The notes under the pieces are model-generated. The model searched no databases. It was not told the origin of the DNA and saw only the letters and a program-made list of their open reading frames with translations. 64,000 bases of DNA from positions 6,138 through 70,137 of the forward strand of contig MU005970.1 in the NCBI GenBank assembly GCA_010093745.1, given 5' to 3'. The DNA is from Piedraia hortae CBS 480.64 (lineage: Eukaryota). The translations under genes were made by a program, and so were the position numbers. Of the stretch, positions 2,597-48,766 are shown piece after piece (within the stretch, counting starts at the first letter, position 1; the number at the start of each line of letters is the position of its first letter).

Positions 2597-3055
2597 TGTT
2601 GATTGCTGTGTCTGGTGGGGAAAGCTTTTATCTCACCGCTAATAATGGCATCACTAGCGAACTATCTTGCATGATACACATCTTCATGTGAGCCGGGGAC
2701 CATCTTCCATCTTCATACTACTAGTACAAGATCATGCTAGGTCTATAGTCTAAGGATGAAACCCGCTTTGGGCATTTGTAGTGCGCCTTTTGAGCCAATA
2801 AAGGAGCTTCCAGACAAGGCGTCAAAGGGTCGGCATCTCGCAATTCCCCTTTTACCATATCATCTGTCACCACGTGTTTCTCACCTGTCAACATGAACCC
2901 TATGCACCTGTCACCTATTATTCACACCGATACAGCCTGCTCCGTATATATTAGATATACCTTAAGATATCCAAGTGATTCTGGCGAATGACGTAGGCGC
3001 GTCAAAGCTCTGAAGTCGCGACAAAAACCTCCGAGCCTTCCAACAAACGTTTCCT

Positions 3056-3101: not shown

Positions 3102-5145
3102 ATGCTTGCTCTGCGCCATGGCGCACGGTGTCTGAGGCGACCTCACAATGTTGTTCTCACACCGTTAACGTTGTCCAGATTCACAAATCGCTCATTGGCG
3201 ACATCATCAAAGCAGATAAGCGCTCAGAAACTTATCTCGAATTCACGACAGCTACGCTGGGCTTCGACTACTGCTACCCCAAAGACAAAACGGTACAAAT
3301 CCATATTCACGCGTGTTCTTGCTTCGTTTGGCCTCTTTGTGCTCACATCTGGCGGTCTGGTGGTCGCATTCTTCCTCTATGATGCTTCCACGTACAGAGA
3401 AGACGGCCATGATGTGCAGATCCCAGTCTCTGCATACGCGCTTTCTCCACGAAGGGGTGGACCTGAGAACTTGCCCATTGCTGAGTACCTGGTTGATGAT
3501 GATGAGCCCCAGCTAAGGGACCAAAAACATAAGCCAAAGCTGGTGATTCTGGGAACAGGATGGGGCAGTGTAGCCATGTTGAAAACGTTGAACCCTGGCG
3601 ATTACCATGTTACAGTCGTCAGCCCCAGCAACCACTTCCTATTCACGCCTATGCTGCCAAGCGCGACAGTTGGGACGCTCGAGTTCCGCAGCCTGACGGA
3701 GCCCGTTAGACATATCATCAAGAAAATAAAAGGCCATTTCCTAAAAGCTGAGGCTGTGGATATTGACTTCAAAGAGAAGCTGCTCAAGGTGGAGGGCGAC
3801 GGCATCAATGGCGAAAAGCAGCAGTTCTACATTCCCTACGACAAGCTGGTCATTGGAGTAGGATCCATGACCAACCCACACGGCGTCAAGGGTTTGGAGA
3901 ACTGCCATTGCCTCAAAAGCATCAGTGACGCTCGTAAAATCCGCAATGCCGTAATCCAGAACCTGGAAGAGGCATGTCTACCCACCACCAGTGACGAGGA
4001 TAGGCGTAGACTTCTCTCGTTTGTCGTCTGCGGCGGCGGCCCTACTGGCGTCGAATTTGCCGCCGAGCTCTACGACATGTTGAGCGAAGATCTCAGCATG
4101 TTCTACCCACACATACTCGGCAACGAATTCGCCGTCAGCATTATTCAAAGCAGAGGCCACATCCTCAACACCTACGACCAAGCACTAAGCGAGTACGCCG
4201 AGGCGCGTTTCTCCCACGAGCACGTAGACGTCCACACCAACGCCCGCGTGCAAGAAGTCCTACCAGACCGCATCCGCTTCTCCCAAAAGACTGCCGACGG
4301 CAAAATCATCAACAAAGAACTCCCAATGGGCTTCTGCCTCTGGTCCACCGGCGTATCCCAAACGCCGTTTAGCCAAAAACTCGCCTCCAAACTCGGCGAG
4401 TCCCAAACCAACCGCCACGCCTTGGAAACCGACTCCCATCTACGCCTTGCCGGCGCACCTCTAGGCGACGTCTACGCCATTGGCGACTGCAGCACCGTGC
4501 AGAACAACATATCCGACCACATCGTATCATTCCTCCGAAGCCTCGCCTGGGAAAAAGGCCTGGACCCTTCCAAAATGCAAATCACATACCCCGAATGGCG
4601 CAAGGTAGCAAAATCCGTCCGTGGACGTTTTCCCCAAGCGTCAGAACACCTCCATCGCCTAGACTGGCTGTTTGAACAATACGACAAGGACAAGAGCGGA
4701 ACCCTCGATTTCGGCGAGCTCAGCGAACTTCTCAGACAAATCGACTCAAAACTGACCAGTCTCCCCGCTACCGCCCAGAGGGCAAACCAGCAGGGCATGT
4801 ATCTTGGAAAGAAATTCAATAGGCTCGCTTGCGCGGACCCGACTACGCTAGGGGAAGGCGATCCCGATGCGGCGGTGTACAAGGCGTTTGAGTACAAACA
4901 CGCGGGCAGTCTGGCGTATGTGGGCAATGCGGCGATTTTTGATATCAACGGGATGAACTTCAAAGGGGGGCTGTTGGCCGTGTACCTTTGGAGGAGCGTT
5001 TACTTTGCTCAATCTGTCAGTTTCAGAACTCGTGTTCTGCTCATGATGGATTGGACGAAACGGACGCTGTTTGGGAGAGGTATGTTCTTCTTATCTTTAA
5101 ACTGTATGTTTACTGATTACTGCTACAGATATGATGAATTACTAG
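3102..5145 (+). CDS. Mitochondrial type II (alternative, external) NAD(P)H dehydrogenase with EF-hand, NDE-1-like
   Basis: Arg-rich presequence, two Rossmann motifs (LVILGTGWG, VVCGGGPTGVE), EF-hand DKDKSGTLDFGE, ATAQRA. Intron 5080-5128 (GTATGT..CTGAT..CAG) gives the terminus LFGRDMMNY*. Confidence 0.93.
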
Positions 5146-10684: not shown

Positions 10685-10958
10685 TTTTGAGAAAGGTGGA
10701 TGTTGGTTTTTTGTCGTTTTGGTTTTGTCTTTGGGGTTCTTCTTGAAGATTCGTACTTTTTTGGACTTTTTGGGGTGATGTCACTGTGGAAGCGTCGAGA
10801 AGATGTGGGGTATGGGTAGTGGGGTCTGTGTCGAAAAGTCAGCCGCGAGATGTCATTTGAGCTTGAGGTTTGAATTGTTTGATTGCCAGGCTATCCAGCT
10901 GCGAGAGTTGCAGATCAACTTGGCTACACGCTGGACATGCAAAAAAAAAAAAAACAAA

Positions 10959-11077
10959 ACTTACAGCAGCGGGGATTCCCACGTGGTCACCCACCGTAGT
11001 ACTAATCCGCCGGTTTGCAGCTTGAGTTCAGGAGAGCGGACGGGATCCTCTGTTCTCTGCAACCTATGGCCGTAAGT
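10959..11077 (-). rRNA. Dispersed 5S rRNA gene
   Basis: ACTTACGGCCATAGG...GATCCCGTCCGCTC...GATTAGTACTACGGTGGGTGACCACGTGGGAATCCCCGCTGCTGTAAGT (119 nt). Helix I closes. A poly-T Pol III terminator follows and a TATA-like element lies ~25-30 nt upstream. Confidence 0.96.
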
Positions 11078-12879: not shown

Positions 12880-13941
12880 TTAGGCAGTGCTTTGGTGCGT
12901 ATCGAGCTTTTCTGCTAGCGCATCCAGCTTAGAATTGATGAGTTTCGCAAATGCCGCAAAGTTTTCGCGAGCCTGGTCGAGCTCCGTTGCCTGGGGCCGG
13001 ACCAGGTCCCGTTGCATGTCTAAGTCTCTTCCCAGTGCGACGGCAAACTTTAGTGTCGTTTCAAAACAATTTCCGGATTCGTTCAGCTGCATGAGATCTA
13101 GTGACCTCTGCTCTTCAAGTTTCCGTGGTAGGTCGTGAATTTGCGTAGACAGCGCACCATCACTGTTCAAAATTGCTTCGGCGTTATCAACGGCCAGATC
13201 CTTTCCCCGGTCTAGCTGCTTGGATATCGTTTCAAGACGGACTGTCAGGTCTTGGTGGTCGTCATCGAATGCTTCAGCAATCTTGAAGGTTGTTTTGTGC
13301 TGCTGGGTGGTCTCCCTGGTGAGGTTGCTGAACTGTGTCATTAACTTCTGGAGGTCCGACTGGTCTGTTGCAGCGTTGTTGGCATACAACGCCTGCAACT
13401 GGTTAACCTGTTCAGAGAGGGCGGAGAGACGGGTCATAACATCGTTGTTAGACCCCGATCGCGGCAAGGCTAGATGTCTTCTGCTAATCCACATCTCGGG
13501 CGAAGTTGATCATCTCTCAAAGTCCGGTAGCCGTTCACAATGGCCTGGGTAGGATTCATCTGACCCAATCTCTTTGCCCCGCGCCACGATGCCATCATCA
13601 TGTCGAAAACAAGGGCCGGAACCAGGGCGAGAATAAACAGCAGAAGGGTGAAATTTGCCGCCGGAAGGAAGCTGACCGTACTTCTGCAGCTGAAAAGTTT
13701 AGGCCACAGATAGGCGAGATGGCAGTGGCAGTGGACGTAGCAAAGGTGGTCGCGGATGCCGAGGGCTCCTGAACGAAAAAAAGCAGTTTCGAAGATATCA
13801 TCATCCCAGTAATTGGCGGGGAAGTCGGTAACGGCGCCGGGGGAGGTGTTCCCGAGAAGGTGGGTTTGGCCCATGCTGATTGTGGTCCCGATGACCGAAA
13901 AGATGGCACGAAAGATGTCGCGTATAAGGTAGAAGATCATG
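12880..13941 (-). pseudogene. Possible frameshifted or lineage-specific gene: hydrophobic N-part plus coiled-coil C-part
   Basis: Two overlapping minus-strand ORFs (13470-14189 and 12880-13494). The second has heptad-like character. No family recognised. Confidence 0.3.
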
Positions 13942-43878: not shown

Positions 43879-44638
43879 ATGTTAACCCTCGCGCTTAGTG
43901 CTGATCTTGACGGGTAGGTTTACATTGTTGATCCCTTCGGAGAAGCCATTCTGATTCCGGAATAAGTATAACAGACCTCCAACCCGCCGAAGACGAATGG
44001 ACGTTCAAAATCCAGTGCACTTCCTGTCGCGAGACGCATCCGAATTGGGTTTCGTTTAGTTCTTCTGTATGATTGTACACCTTTTGGGGGAAGGGGACTG
44101 ATTGGAAAAAACAGGATAAAGTCGAGCAAAGCAAAGGCAAAGGCGAGGCGAATTTCGTGTGGAGATGTCGGAATTGCAAGGTATCTTTCTTCCATTGAAA
44201 CCAACCAGGGTGGGGGGTCTCCTTCCATGCTTTTTCTTCCCTGGAATTGTTCCATGCTATTCCATTCAACTCAGGGGATCACTTCCTCTAATTTCTTTGC
44301 CTCCATTGGAGATTATATGCTAATTAAAATAGAGGGAACATACAGCCAATGTCGTCGATTCGCCGAAGGCTTACTCTGATTCGAATGCACTCAAGAACAT
44401 CATCTCGTTTGATTGTAGGGGGATTGAACTTTTGGAGTTTAAACCTGATGTGCGTTGTTATTACCCTCTTCAACCCTACATTTGTTGATTGGCATAGGGC
44501 AACTGGAAAGCAAAAGGCACAGAATCGAATACGCCGTTCCCCGAGATCGATTTAAACGATGATTGGTTCGATTATGATGAGAAAGCTGCTGCTGAGGTTT
44601 CGATAAAGGAGGTAAAGTGGGTTATTAGGAAAGCGTGA
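43879..44638 (+). CDS. DUF866/UPF0587 (CXXC zinc-binding, CZIB-like) protein
   Basis: Not in the ORF track; five exons: MLTLALSADLDG-ITDLQP..FKIQCTSCRETH..GEANFVWRCRNCK-REH..FDCRGIELLEFKPD-GNW..DWFDYDEKA..EVSI. Confidence 0.88.
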
Positions 44639-44997
44639 GGATACCACTTGGTATGCTTGTTTGCTCTTCATGTACGTTGTAAACTTTGTATCCTGTGGGT
44701 GGTTCCATTGGGAGGAAGGGTGGTATTTCTTTCTCTGTTGAACTTGGTTCCTCGAATTTAAGCTCTCGGTTGGTAATCGCCTTAGGTTCTAAGACATGGC
44801 CGTACCCACTGAACCGTTAGGCAAGGATCTTACTCCTCTCGGATTCAAGACTTGGTATATGCCAGGACATATTTCGTGTGGCTGGATATGTGTGCACGGG
44901 AATCAAAGGCTGGACCAGGAAAGATTGAATGAGGAAGATGGACTACTCACAGGCATACACAGCTCTCGCCATCGTACAGTATGTACATATAAACACA

Positions 44998-46587
44998 CTA
45001 ACAGCCGAGGTATCGCTGCTCAACCCATCGCGGCTCAATATCGCCGGCAACATGGCATAGAACGACATGGATATCCGGGTAAACTGTCATCAGTCGGTTG
45101 AGGCCGTTGCGTCCAGCCATGTATGTTACAAAAACAATTTGATCTTCCCGCGCATCGTGGTCTAGCAAGACCCGCACCGCCATGAGCGCCGCGCCACCAG
45201 AGCTCATCTGCGGATCGAGAAGTAGCACGCAGCCGCTCTCGCAGACCTTGCCAAGGCTGTAAAAATGTAATTCAGGCTCGCCGGTTCGATGGTTCGCTTG
45301 TATCAACATGCGCCCTGTTCGGCAGTCCGGAATGACACGTTTGAGGCCCGTTTCCAGACAGGACCCGCCTCGCAGAATGACGACGGCAGATGCTTCGCCA
45401 GCCCATTTCAGGCCGCGGATGTCGCGTCCCGTCGGTGTTTCTACCTCACGGGAGCGGAACTGTAGCCCGACCTCGCAGGCTTTCTCAACGAGCATGACGG
45501 CTAGGCGATCAAAGTAGAAGATGAACTCATCTGTTGGCGTGCCGTGCACCATGAGGCGTGTGTTGATACTTCGCACTTGGTTCGTTTGCTGCAAGATGCG
45601 GATGTGCGGGGAGAGGGGATGGTCTTCACATTCCTGGCCCAGCCGTCTCAGCTCATGCTGGTGCATGGCCGACTTTTCATCCAGAGTCTTGCGGATCCGA
45701 TCGGCCACCATGCTAATGGCGACTTTGTTCTCTATGCCCCGAGGCACAATGAGATCTATTCTGGTCAGCTGCCGCTCGAGTCCAAGATTTGTGTGTGCGT
45801 AGAATTATATCAGAAAGTGATGATTGTCTTCAAGGTTGTTTTCAACCTCAGTTGAACTATGCTTTTTGTTTTTGTGCTCATCATACAAAGGTGCAGATAT
45901 GTCAGACTTACCGGCCTTGACCCTCTGAGGTTCGACATATTTGTGGAAGTTGGGCTTAACGAAGCTGAACCATTGCTTTATGCAGCCGTGGATGTCACGA
46001 CCACGCTCCTCGACATCCCGCAGCACTTGATCATTAGCCAGCAATCAGACAAAGACAACTAGCTTACGTCGGCGCGACAAGCACAGGTCGGCATCTGCAT
46101 CTGCAAAGATCTTCATATCCAGCATATCCAGCACGCGCTGGTCATGCAGAGCGAATATCCCTTCCAGAAGAAGCACGTGGGGCGAGTAAATTGTGGTGGT
46201 GCGATCCAGCCGCTTATGCTTCTCAAAGGAATAGACAGGGATGTTAGCCTTTTGCCTGGACGGTCAGTCGCGCCTTTGACCGTTGAACCAGGCGTACCCG
46301 GACTTGATTTCGCGCAGTCGCTCGACCAAGATGTCGAAATCGATTGCCTTGGGCGAGTCAAAGTCGTACTCGTTCCGAAACGCCGCAGCACTCTGCTCAG
46401 CATCCAAGGGCTTGTAGAAGCTGTCCATGGACAAAATCACGACCCACGGCAAGCTCAACTCCTTGATGATGGCGTGTGACAACGAGGTCTTGCCGGAGCC
46501 AGACGAGCCGGCGATGCCGATGATGGACGTATTGGCCCATGGAGGAGAGTAGTGGGCGCGCTGAACCCCATCGCTGAGCCTCTTCAT
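44998..46587 (-). CDS. URK1: Uridine kinase with C-terminal UPRTase-like domain
   Basis: IGIAGSSGSGKT, SMDSFY, FDSP, EGIFAL, RDVEERGR, FIFYFDRL, LLDPQMSSGGAA. Introns 46297-46256, 46067-46026 and 45911-45756. Confidence 0.93.
45805..45888 (-). ncRNA. Intronic box C/D snoRNA, snR60/SNORD77-80-like (predicted guide for LSU A817, yeast numbering)
   Basis: In URK1 intron 3 (156 nt). Box C ATGATGA 45884-45878, guide GCATAGTTCA + a + D' CTGA 45851-45848, hairpin GGTTG-AAAA-CAACC, C'-like TGAAGA, box D CTGA 45813-45810. The guide is complementary to the conserved LSU sequence UGAACUAUGC. Confidence 0.85.
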
Positions 46588-46824
46588 TTGATCTTCCTCA
46601 TGGCCGAGAGGTTTTTGGTGGACGGTGGTGTCAGGGCCACACGTGATCGCACAGGAGAGTCACGTGCTTGGCGGGGCTGTCCACAAACGCAAAATTTTCC
46701 CTTTCGTCCCAGGCTTCTGCATGTGAGGATGAATTGCAGCGCGCGCCTGAGCCTGCCGTTTGTGCCGCTTTTTTATGGTAAATGCATCACCATTATCCTT
46801 CCAGACCAGACTAACGCTCCGAAG

Positions 46825-47874
46825 ATGTCGATCGTAACTCCAGCGAGGACGACGCGTACGACTTGGGAACGCGAGGTTGACAGCGCGAGGCCAAGCAAAA
46901 GGTAAGCGAGCCCTCCTCTTCCATCTTTGAAGTCGACATGATGCTGCACAACAAGATGGGAATCTCTCCGAATACCCCATGAGGAGCATATTATTATCTT
47001 GATCTCTGATACGCCTTCAAAGCTGCCCGCCTGTCGCTACAGCTGCCCGTTTTTGTCGTAGTCCAATCTGACATGATACAGGGAGATTGACCATGTTGTC
47101 CTGGACTACCTCATCACCGAGGGATATCCTGAGGTTGCCAAGCTTTTCGCACACGATGCGGATCTGAAGCTCCCGGACGAACAGTCCATGTGGAGTCGAA
47201 TGTCAGTTCGCAATGCAATCCACGACGGCGACGCGGGCAAAGCGATTGAATTACTCAACGATTTCAATGCCGAAGTAAGTTCTATCCACCCTCCCTTGGC
47301 ATGATTAAACCGTAGTTCATGCACCACTCTGAGCCCCAGGGCCATGTTGATGCAAACACTCTTCAGTCCTCAGAATGATGTCCATTCCTGCAAAAGCTCG
47401 TAGCGACTGTACGGACCAGGCTAACAGGCACAGATACTTGACAACGACGGGCTTTTGCACTTTCGTCTTCTTCAAATGCAATTGATTGAAATTATCCGGC
47501 CCGTCCTCGCCAAAGGCAAAGATGTAAATGTTGAAGAGTTCCGTCCCGCCCTTGAGTTTGCGCGCAACCAGCTCGCACCACGCGTTCCAACGGGCGATGA
47601 GTATCGGAAGATTATGGAACACACAATGGCATTGATGATTTTTGACCCAATGCATGCCGGACCAGAGTTGACGTCGCTGCTTGACCACAATCTCAGATAC
47701 AATCTGGCTTCAGCGGTCAACAAGGCCATGTTGGACAGTCGGAAGGAGTCATCGGAGGCCAAAATTCTCCAACTGGAGCGCACCAACGTGTGGGCAGAAC
47801 TGCGTGCCGGTGAAGCGAAATTGGGCATACCTCCAAAAGACGACGATGACTATGATGATCCCATGGTTTCTTGA
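46825..47874 (+). CDS. LisH/CTLH/CRA protein, Gid8-like subunit of the GID/CTLH E3 ligase
   Basis: Exons 46825-46901, 47082-47274 and 47434-47874: EIDHVVLDYLITEGYPEVAKLF (LisH), RNAIHDGDAGKAIELLND, LHFRLLQMQLIEIIR, ALEFARNQLAP, MEHTMALMIF. Confidence 0.85.
46925..47022 (+). ncRNA. Intronic box C/D snoRNA, SNORD79 (U79)-like
   Basis: In GID8 intron 1 (180 nt). 8-bp terminal stem CTTTGAAG/CTTCAAAG, box C variant ATGATGC 46938, guide AGATGGGAATCTCT + D' CCGA 46968, C' ATGAGGA 46979, D CTGA 47006. The guide pairs with LSU GAGAUUCCCA. Confidence 0.85.
47297..47384 (+). ncRNA. Intronic box C/D snoRNA, snR40/SNORD32-like (predicted guide for 18S G1271, yeast numbering)
   Basis: In GID8 intron 2 (159 nt). 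Box C variant ATGATTA 47301, guide CATGCACCACT + D' CTGA 47329, GCCC/GGGC hairpin, C' ATGTTGA 47344, degenerate D (ATGA 47375). The guide pairs with 18S GUGGUGCAUG. Confidence 0.75.
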
Positions 47875-48025
47875 AAACGTGTACGAATAGTGTGTAATGT
47901 AGTAGGCCTCACGAATTTCTATATGTAGTGTCATTCCACCATCAACATTGAAAAACAGGCACATGTACACACCGTAGCCTCGGTTGAGGAGCAGTCGTAT
48001 GAAAAACAACAGCCCAGGCGTAGCC

Positions 48026-48766
48026 ATGGAACTCACAACCACGCTCTTATGGACCCTCATAGCCTTCTTTTCCCTCATCACCCACAGCAGCGGCCTCCCA
48101 TCCACCCACGATGAACAAGCTGCCCTAACCTCCAAAATCCCGCTAGAAATCCACATCATGTCCAAATGCCCCGACACACGCGACTGTCTAAGCCAGTACA
48201 TCCTTCCCGCCATGCAAAACGTCTCTGACCTCGTCGACTTTACACTTTCCTACATCGGATAGTAAGCCCATCACCTTCCCCTCCCCCNNNNNNNNNNCCC
48301 CCAAACCCCCAATCAATCCTCCACGCTGACCGGGTGAACCAGCACAACAAAGGACGACGGAGTCGAATGTCTCCACGGCCCAAGCGAATGTCTAGGCAAC
48401 ATCCTCGAACTCTGCGCCGCGGAGATGTATCCCACCCCCAGAATCTATTTGGGATTTGCAATGTGTTTGTCCAAAAGACTGCGCGAGATTCCGGAACGAG
48501 GGTTGATTGAGAATTGTGCGTTGGAACATGGGATTTCGTTTGAGAGTTTGAATGAGTGTTCGACGAGAGATGATGGGGAGTTTGGACTGGAGTTGTTGAG
48601 GAAGAGTTTTGAGAGAAGTGAAAGTGCGGGTGTGAGGACTAGTTGTACGGTTAGGTTGCAGGATAAGGTGCGTTGTGTGAGGGACAGGGGGAGGTGGAAG
48701 AATTGTCCTGCTTCGGCGGACCCGAGGGTGTTGGTGAGGGATATTAGGGCGTTGGCGGGACGGTGA
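48026..48766 (+). CDS. GILT (gamma-interferon-inducible lysosomal thiol reductase)-like secreted protein
   Basis: Signal peptide, HIMSKCPD, intron 48262-48342 (contains the N gap), signature CLHGPSECLGN, SCTVRL..CVRD..W..C. Confidence 0.88.
48288..48297. other. Assembly gap (10 N) within a C-rich intron tract
   Basis: N run flanked by C runs. Confidence 0.99.

Follow-up and report, generated by a model that had tools for sequence, protein, structure and literature searches.

Three long introns of the head-to-head gene pair URK1 and GID8 in the fungus Piedraia hortae CBS 480.64 probably each encode one box C/D small nucleolar RNA (snoRNA). This reading comes from an analysis of 64,000 nucleotides (nt) of contig MU005970.1 (positions 6,138 to 70,137 of the forward strand; henceforth the window, from whose first letter all coordinates below are counted), in which we considered intron structure, box motifs, complementarity to ribosomal RNA (rRNA) and likeness to snoRNAs catalogued in other organisms. 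The three units, which we will refer to as sno1, sno2 and sno3, lie one per long intron, all in host-sense orientation, and are new members of known families; the sites addressed by all three D' guides are already known. What lifts them above chance is that their guides fall on documented methylation sites, that they occupy the only long introns and read in the same direction as the hosts, that they match RNAs cloned from Neurospora crassa, and that two of them are conserved in an orthologous locus. From these features we infer their expression, processing, assembly into ribonucleoproteins (snoRNPs) and the methylations that they would guide.

The introns were delimited with contigs of sequencing run X2 mapped on 44500-48200, with run X1, which is DNA and collinear with the window, as reference. 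X2 showed six GT..AG joints that were missing from X1, and thus behaves as spliced RNA; none of its contigs covers the sequence of any of the three long introns. The exons of URK1 matched the Pfam domains PRK (E value 7e-18) and UPRTase (E value 2.5e-37), and those of GID8 matched LisH (E value 2.9e-5) and CTLH/CRA (E value 1.2e-16). Of the six introns in this stretch of 3.7 kb, three are short, at 42-47 nt, and the others are long:

45756-45911, minus strand: URK1 intron 3 (156 nt), a spliced-contig joint in X2 that is absent in X1; host of sno1
46026-46067 and 46255-46296, minus strand: the other URK1 introns (42 nt each), X2 joints
46778-46824, plus strand: first intron of GID8 (47 nt), X2 joint; no snoRNA
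46902-47081, plus strand: GID8 intron 2 of 3 (180 nt), X2 joint; host of sno2
47275-47433, plus strand: GID8 intron 3 of 3 (159 nt), X2 joint; host of sno3

An earlier, sequence-only reading of this DNA had proposed three long introns of 156, 180 and 159 nt here, and the X2 joints reproduce these sizes exactly. It was also right about the two long introns of GID8, although it called them both introns of that gene and so overlooked the third, of 47 nt. The box motifs and guides were found at the following places:

45808-45888, minus strand: sno1, candidate box C/D snoRNA of the snR60/Afu_263 type, in URK1 intron 3
45884-45878, 45851-45848, 45833-45827 and 45813-45810, minus strand: sno1 boxes C (AUGAUGA), D' (CUGA), C' (UUGAAGA) and D (CUGA)
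45865-45852, minus strand: sno1 D' guide (14 nt)
46933-47014 (ends approximate), plus strand: sno2, candidate of the U79 / N. crassa CD14 type, in GID8 intron 2
46938-46944, 46968-46971, 46979-46985 and 47006-47009, plus strand: sno2 boxes C (AUGAUGC), D' (CCGA), C' (AUGAGGA) and D (CUGA)
46956-46967, plus strand: sno2 D' guide
47296-47383 (ends approximate), plus strand: sno3, candidate for the snR40 site and of the N. crassa CD55 type, in GID8 intron 3
47301-47307, 47329-47332, 47348-47353 and 47375-47378, plus strand: sno3 boxes C (AUGAUUA), D' (CUGA), C' (UGAUGC) and D (AUGA)
47316-47328 and 47361-47374, plus strand: sno3 D' guide, and sno3 D guide directly upstream of D

The four boxes per intron that had been claimed earlier can be read in the sequence, with one correction: sno3 has no CUGA at its 3' end, and its D position is occupied by AUGA. 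We tried CAGA (47371-47374) as the D box of sno3 and rejected it, as it is not kept in the orthologous locus described below (L074). Between D' and C', sno1 has a hairpin of 5-7 base pairs (bp). An external stem of sno2 (46927-46932 with 47015-47020) is present in the minimum free energy fold (6+2 bp), and for sno1 and sno3 we counted by eye 3-4 possible terminal pairs each. The ends of the D boxes lie 54 nt (sno1), 72 nt (sno2) and 55 nt (sno3) from the 3' splice sites. The C and D boxes are canonical in sno1, AUGAUGC and CUGA in sno2, and AUGAUUA and AUGA in sno3; we counted all three pairs as C/D motifs on their predicted ability to form a kink-turn. In a canonical kink-turn, G6 of the C box pairs with C1 of the D box. 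In sno3, U6 of the C box and A1 of the D box can form a U:A pair that would replace this G:C pair, and the two box changes involved are common to the window fungus, L074 and the printed sequence of N. crassa CD55.

We then compared the guides with rRNA genes (rDNA) of other eukaryotes that occur as contaminants of bacterial assemblies. Briefly, the ITS4 primer retrieved at least 62 loci, and the LR10 primer, run on 25 genomes behind those loci, gave 11 more from nine genomes; 73 loci could be oriented (L001-L073), among the matches listed. Eukaryotic rDNA is a frequent contaminant of public bacterial assemblies, with at least 62 loci for the ITS4 primer alone; an ITS4 scan of viral contigs returned no loci.

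The D' guide of sno1 forms 10 Watson-Crick bp with TGAACTATGC in large subunit (LSU) rRNA, with an A opposite guide position 5; this 10-mer target is present in 14 of the 73 loci, among the matches listed, and its 12-bp version in L004 only. For sno2, the D' guide forms 10 Watson-Crick bp with GAGATTCCCA, placing the A of GAGA*TT opposite position 5. Its target word was found in L064, L067 and L072, the other loci that cover the site being masked or ending before it, and an 11-mer from the guide had no matches in five genomes, the true complement being only 10 nt long. The D' guide of sno3 forms 12 bp (two of them G-U) with 18S GGTGGTGCATGG, with a G opposite position 5, and the 10-mer target occurs in 7 of the 73 loci, among the matches listed. 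These are exactly the places that the sequence-only reading had named as D' targets (LSU A817, the LSU A in GAGA*UUCCC and 18S G1271).

A second guide of sno3, upstream of its D box, forms 14 bp (one of them G-U) with LSU TTTGAGGACTGAAG of L004, placing opposite position 5 an A located in that locus 657 nt 3' of the A817-equivalent. In L074, this guide forms 14 Watson-Crick bp with the target variant TTTGAAGACTGAAGT, which L070 and L072 carry; L070, L072 and L004 are the only three loci that cover the place. We considered covariation between guide and target at the LSU A/G opposite this guide, and dropped it because the U of L074 pairs with either base. Within the 73-locus set, none of the target words occurred on the antisense strand of rRNA, and the D guides of sno1 and sno2 had no conserved rRNA match. 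In sum, against rDNA of other eukaryotes each of the three units has, before its D' box, an antisense element of at least 10 bp with a known 2'-O-methylation site opposite position 5, in keeping with box C/D guides, for which an element ending 1-2 nt before D or D' is expected. As a separate observation, L004 carries the LSU variants GCTTGA and TTTGAGG, which fit the window guides best, and may be from a related fungus.

Comparison with published catalogues tied each unit to a family. The D' guide of sno1, AAGCAUAGUUCA followed by CUGA, is like those of snR60, Afu_263, N. crassa CD48 and human U77 and U80 for the LSU A817-equivalent. Table 1 of Liu et al. 2009 assigns 26S-Am797 to snR60/U80/U77, which agrees with the snR60/U77-U80 site proposed earlier for sno1, and the same study gives N. 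crassa CD48 two targets, 26S-Am797 (by D') and Gm888 (by D), with snR60, U80 and U80/U77 as homologues. According to Canzler et al. 2018, snR60 guides 25S-817 from D' and 25S-908 from D; the study of Jöchl et al. 2008 assigns Am815 and Gm906 to Afu-263, which is related to snR60 and lies in a different host gene. sno1 also resembles Afu_263 in its D'-C' hairpin and overall size, and has a guide core in common with CD48. The hosts differ: sno1 lies in URK1, Afu-263 in Afu3g14080, and CD48 is on N. crassa chromosome V (CD14 and CD55, discussed next, being on chromosome IV). Most likely, sno1 is a single-guide relative of snR60/Afu_263 that would target the LSU A817-equivalent.

For sno2, the relevant entry in Table 1 of Liu et al. 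2009 is 26S-Am2288, equated there with U79, which is the family that had been suggested for this unit. Its N. crassa guide, CD14, is an intronic RNA of 75 nt cloned as cDNA that addresses 26S-Am2288 by its D' guide with 10/0 pairing, and has homologues in plant and human U79 and none in either yeast (Liu et al. 2009). sno2 is like CD14 in being intronic and about 75-80 nt long, with ...AUGGGAAUCUCU as its D' guide ahead of the D' box, and its C' box AUGAGGAG and guide core are the same as those printed for CD14. With CD14 and SNORD79 it shares the target, the A of GAGA*UUCCC (26S-Am2288 in N. crassa), reached from the D' guide; we numbered this site, GAGAUUCCC, after the N. crassa table of Liu et al. 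2009. It is unlike them in its non-canonical C box (AUGAUGC) and D' box (CCGA), both of which are also found in L074, and in an unrelated D-side spacer. A literature search on SNORD79 with A3809 returned no paper. We consider sno2 most likely to be the orthologue of CD14, i.e., a fungal U79. CD14 and CD55 are both on N. crassa chromosome IV, their host genes being unnamed in Liu et al. 2009; this location fits a shared host and no more than suggests shared synteny.

The case of sno3 leads to CD55, an intronic N. crassa RNA of 137 nt, verified by cDNA and northern blot, that was called an orphan (Liu et al. 2009). The CD55 sequence printed there has 4 nt ahead of AUGAUUA, contains UCAUGCACCAC and stops 5 nt beyond AUGA. 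By eye, it has in common with sno3 the C box AUGAUUA, the guide core UCAUGCACCAC, a C' box UGAUGA/C, the 3' AUGA and its intronic location. CD55 is unlike sno3 in its long D'-C' insert and its degenerate D' box (CAUA at the D' place), and its D-side guide differs from the one conserved between sno3 and L074. The study of Canzler et al. 2018 describes Nc_CD_55 as 'exclusively found in Neurospora', with no target analysable, and gives 18S-1271 as the D' target of snR40, in keeping with the snR40 site that the sequence-only reading had assigned to sno3. Like yeast snR40, sno3 places the 18S G1271-equivalent at position 5 of its D' guide; the two thus have the same predicted target site, which we do not take as showing descent from snR40. 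The LSU site of the sno3 D guide is absent from the N. crassa list of Liu et al. 2009, and the accessible part of the A. fumigatus list of Jöchl et al. 2008 has no site near the sno3 targets. On this basis we see an even chance that CD55 represents a wider filamentous-fungus family with the role of snR40, a fixed, non-canonical AUGAUUA/AUGA kink-turn whose two changes compensate each other and, in at least two species, a second, previously unlisted target, an LSU adenosine.

Rfam covariance models gave graded results for the three units. sno1 aligned end to end with Afu_263 (RF02402) at 38.7 bits (gathering score 60), with an E value of 0.0013 in a 2.2-kb search and 0.037 over the whole window, where it was one of only four matches with E values up to 5. 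In this alignment the 17-nt guide and D' box of sno1 are identical to the consensus, 12 positions of the model's D guide are deleted, and the D'-C' hairpin is kept with different base pairs. sno2 matched SNORD79 at 19.7 bits (E value 1.6-7.4; gathering score 47), with 15 guide nucleotides identical to the consensus. sno3 matched plant Z221/R21b at 16.3 bits in its guide part only, and no model of the snR40 type was found for it at E values up to 10. Taken alone, Rfam thus supports sno1 marginally and sno2 and sno3 hardly at all. The Rfam check that the earlier reading had proposed for these families gave only the marginal E value of sno1 to Afu_263, with no snoRNA match at a gathering score and none of the snR40 type. 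A search of genome G001 with Afu_263 gave no matches, and the control genomes had none either.

An orthologous locus was found in a metagenomic fungus. The metagenome scan, whose pattern ran from the sno2 guide to the C' box, returned two loci (L074 and L075). In L074 the head-to-head arrangement of URK1 and GID8 is retained, and GID8 has introns at the same places, of 177 nt (sno2) and 152 nt (sno3). Outside the scan pattern, the sno2 intron conserves the C box AUGAUGC, the D box CUGA and their spacing, and the D' box CCGA, likewise no part of the pattern, is identical; the spacers on the D side are unrelated. Between the two fungi, the external stem of sno2 shows a two-sided change (GAAG/CUUC in the window vs. 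GAUG/CAUC in L074). The sno3 intron lies entirely outside the scan pattern, and the blocks kept there are the C box, the 13-nt D' guide, the C' box, 11 of 12 D-guide bases and AUGA, the flanking intron sequence having diverged. The proposal that a snoRNA explains why an intron stays long fits this comparison, in that the GID8 introns of L074 are kept together with their snoRNAs and neither the URK1 intron nor sno1 is present; synteny of the introns held for GID8 and failed for URK1. In L074 URK1 (regions ~3690-3790 and ~2960-3000 of the reverse complement), the conserved ...PPW near the N-terminus is directly followed by an intron that URK1 of the window lacks, and intron 3 of the window gene is missing. 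URK1 intron positions thus turn over between the window fungus and the L074 fungus.

Several points weigh against the snoRNA interpretation. At Rfam gathering thresholds the window matched only a 5S rRNA gene, and no snoRNA reached its cutoff. The rDNA set stems from other eukaryotes and is not the organism's own rRNA. Likeness to N. crassa CD14, CD55 and CD48 is a visual judgement on printed sequences and not the output of an alignment tool. L074 and L075 are identical and thus count as one independent orthologous locus, in which the block from the sno2 guide to C' is conserved by selection of the scan pattern. In the same locus URK1 is uninterrupted where the sno1 intron would lie, and the 8 kb of that locus do not contain the sno1 guide. 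sno1 itself is no double guide, for it has no counterpart of the D guide with which Afu-263, CD48 and snR60 address the G908-equivalent. Folding energies equal those of shuffled sequences (z 0.0 to 0.5), which is usual for C/D RNAs and gives no support. Finally, a motif scan of the window required a C box with no more than one mismatch, a perfect 10-bp rDNA complement and CUGA or CCGA. All rDNA words together gave 11 matches vs. a mean of 4.46 (maximum 9) in 100 Markov shuffles, and words present in at least four loci gave 4 matches vs. a mean of 1.56, with at least 3 in 44 of 200 shuffles; sno2 cannot score in the latter word set, for which its target is too sparsely covered. By themselves, boxes with a 10-nt match to rRNA are not beyond chance.

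These results bear directly on the possibility that the three introns are long but ordinary, make no snoRNA and match the motifs by chance, a reading which the near-random frequency of comparable half-motifs elsewhere in the window (in the loose scan) and the lack of a gathering-score match in Rfam would favour. All three guides, however, fall on documented sites; with 64 predicted sites in N. crassa (Liu et al. 2009), which we estimate at ~1% of rRNA positions, three chance matches to methylation sites are very unlikely. Moreover, conservation is confined to boxes and guides in two orthologous introns that have otherwise diverged, cloned N. crassa RNAs share the layout, and eight other scan matches showed no snoRNA architecture on inspection. 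We therefore regard chance as scarcely credible. A scan match at 13248 (minus strand), in an open reading frame, joins GATGAC...ACCACCAAGAC to a CUGA and is complementary to the U24-type LSU target region; it has neither a D box nor any other snoRNA architecture and was set aside as a chance match.

Preferring the snoRNA interpretation overall leaves two narrower questions. sno1 could be a relic of snR60, a copy in decay or made redundant, with only the GID8 snoRNAs functional: its score of 38.7 bits falls short of 60 with the D-guide segment of the model (12 positions) deleted, its D guide matches no conserved rRNA target, L074 has neither the intron nor the guide, and Afu-263 and CD48 lie in other host genes. 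Yet its four boxes are intact, the 17-nt guide and D' still equal the consensus, the hairpin is kept with different pairs, and its intron measures 156 nt vs. 42 nt for the two others of URK1. Table 1 of Liu et al. 2009 also lists single-guide paralogues for the A817-type site, namely U77 in humans (next to U80) and snR60-I in S. pombe. We consider a relic unlikely. sno3, in turn, could be a half C/D RNA of ~49 nt that uses the CUGA at 47329-47332 as its D box and is closed by the stem CCCUUGGC / GCCCCAGGG, with inert sequence downstream. This is the layout of the Z221/R21b alignment (46 model positions deleted, UGGC/GCCA stem), and that CUGA is canonical, vs. AUGA at the 3' box of sno3. In L074, by contrast, the D' box of sno3 is CUUA and its flanks are unable to form the closing stem of a half RNA, and C', the downstream guide and AUGA are conserved; the cloned CD55 likewise continues for 5 nt beyond AUGA, and CAUA stands where its D' box would be. 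On the CUUA and the non-stem flanks of L074 we ruled the half RNA out, as very improbable, and retain the full-length layout of sno3.

Box C/D snoRNAs in general are stable RNAs of ~70-140 nt that associate with fibrillarin, Nop56, Nop58 and Snu13. If the three units act as box C/D snoRNAs, a snoRNP would assemble on the pre-mRNA at the C/D kink-turn, the host intron would be spliced out and debranched, and exonucleases would trim it back to the snoRNP, which would then 2'-O-methylate the rRNA nucleotide paired with the fifth nucleotide of the guide, counted from D' or D in the upstream direction. The predicted products are methylation of the LSU A817-equivalent by sno1 and of the A in GAGA*UUCCC by sno2; sno3 would methylate the 18S G1271-equivalent from D' and the LSU adenosine 657 nt 3' of the A817-equivalent from D. 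An intronic origin is the rule in N. crassa, where 45 of 55 box C/D snoRNAs are intron-encoded (Liu et al. 2009). A literature search on snoRNAs in GID8 introns returned no paper.

The spacer between the two host genes contains the following feature:

46610-46730, no strand assigned: putative shared promoter, a stretch of ~121 nt bounded by the 5' ends of the RNA contigs of the two genes, as estimated from depth bins and contig pieces

Within the spacer we found CACGTG at 46640-46645 and 46661-46666 (21 bp apart) and AAAATTTT at 46691-46698. The sequence-only reading had further proposed that the two genes, driven by one bidirectional promoter, act as a micro-locus for co-expressed snoRNAs. 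As it was put, this micro-locus is hypothetical and not supported: L074 has the two genes head to head even though its URK1 carries no snoRNA, so their arrangement does not require a three-snoRNA unit.

We made three further observations in the window. The 47-nt intron of GID8 lies exactly between ATG 46775-46777, which precedes the 5' splice site, and ATG 46825-46827, which follows the 3' splice site; the spliced mRNA reads ATGATG, and the first intron may split the coding sequence after codon 1. A run of 10 N (assembly gap) occurs at 48289-48298, within a C-rich stretch just downstream of the neighbour of GID8. The 5S rRNA gene (10958-11077, minus strand; Rfam 88.7 bits, E value 1e-17) is a lone copy, away from any rDNA unit.

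The three units would add three unannotated snoRNA genes and would explain introns 3-4 times longer than their neighbours. They would also provide a further case in which snoRNA-bearing introns are kept, the GID8 introns persisting with their cargo, and the URK1 intron and its snoRNA being present or absent together. For sno3, the comparison suggests a wider CD55 family with a second target, and hence a target and a broader range for a snoRNA that two surveys had left as a Neurospora-specific orphan, although the supplements of Canzler et al. 2018 may qualify this. With its predicted U:A pair, sno3 may also be a natural example of a compensated C/D kink-turn, one that snoRNA finders expecting CUGA would miss.

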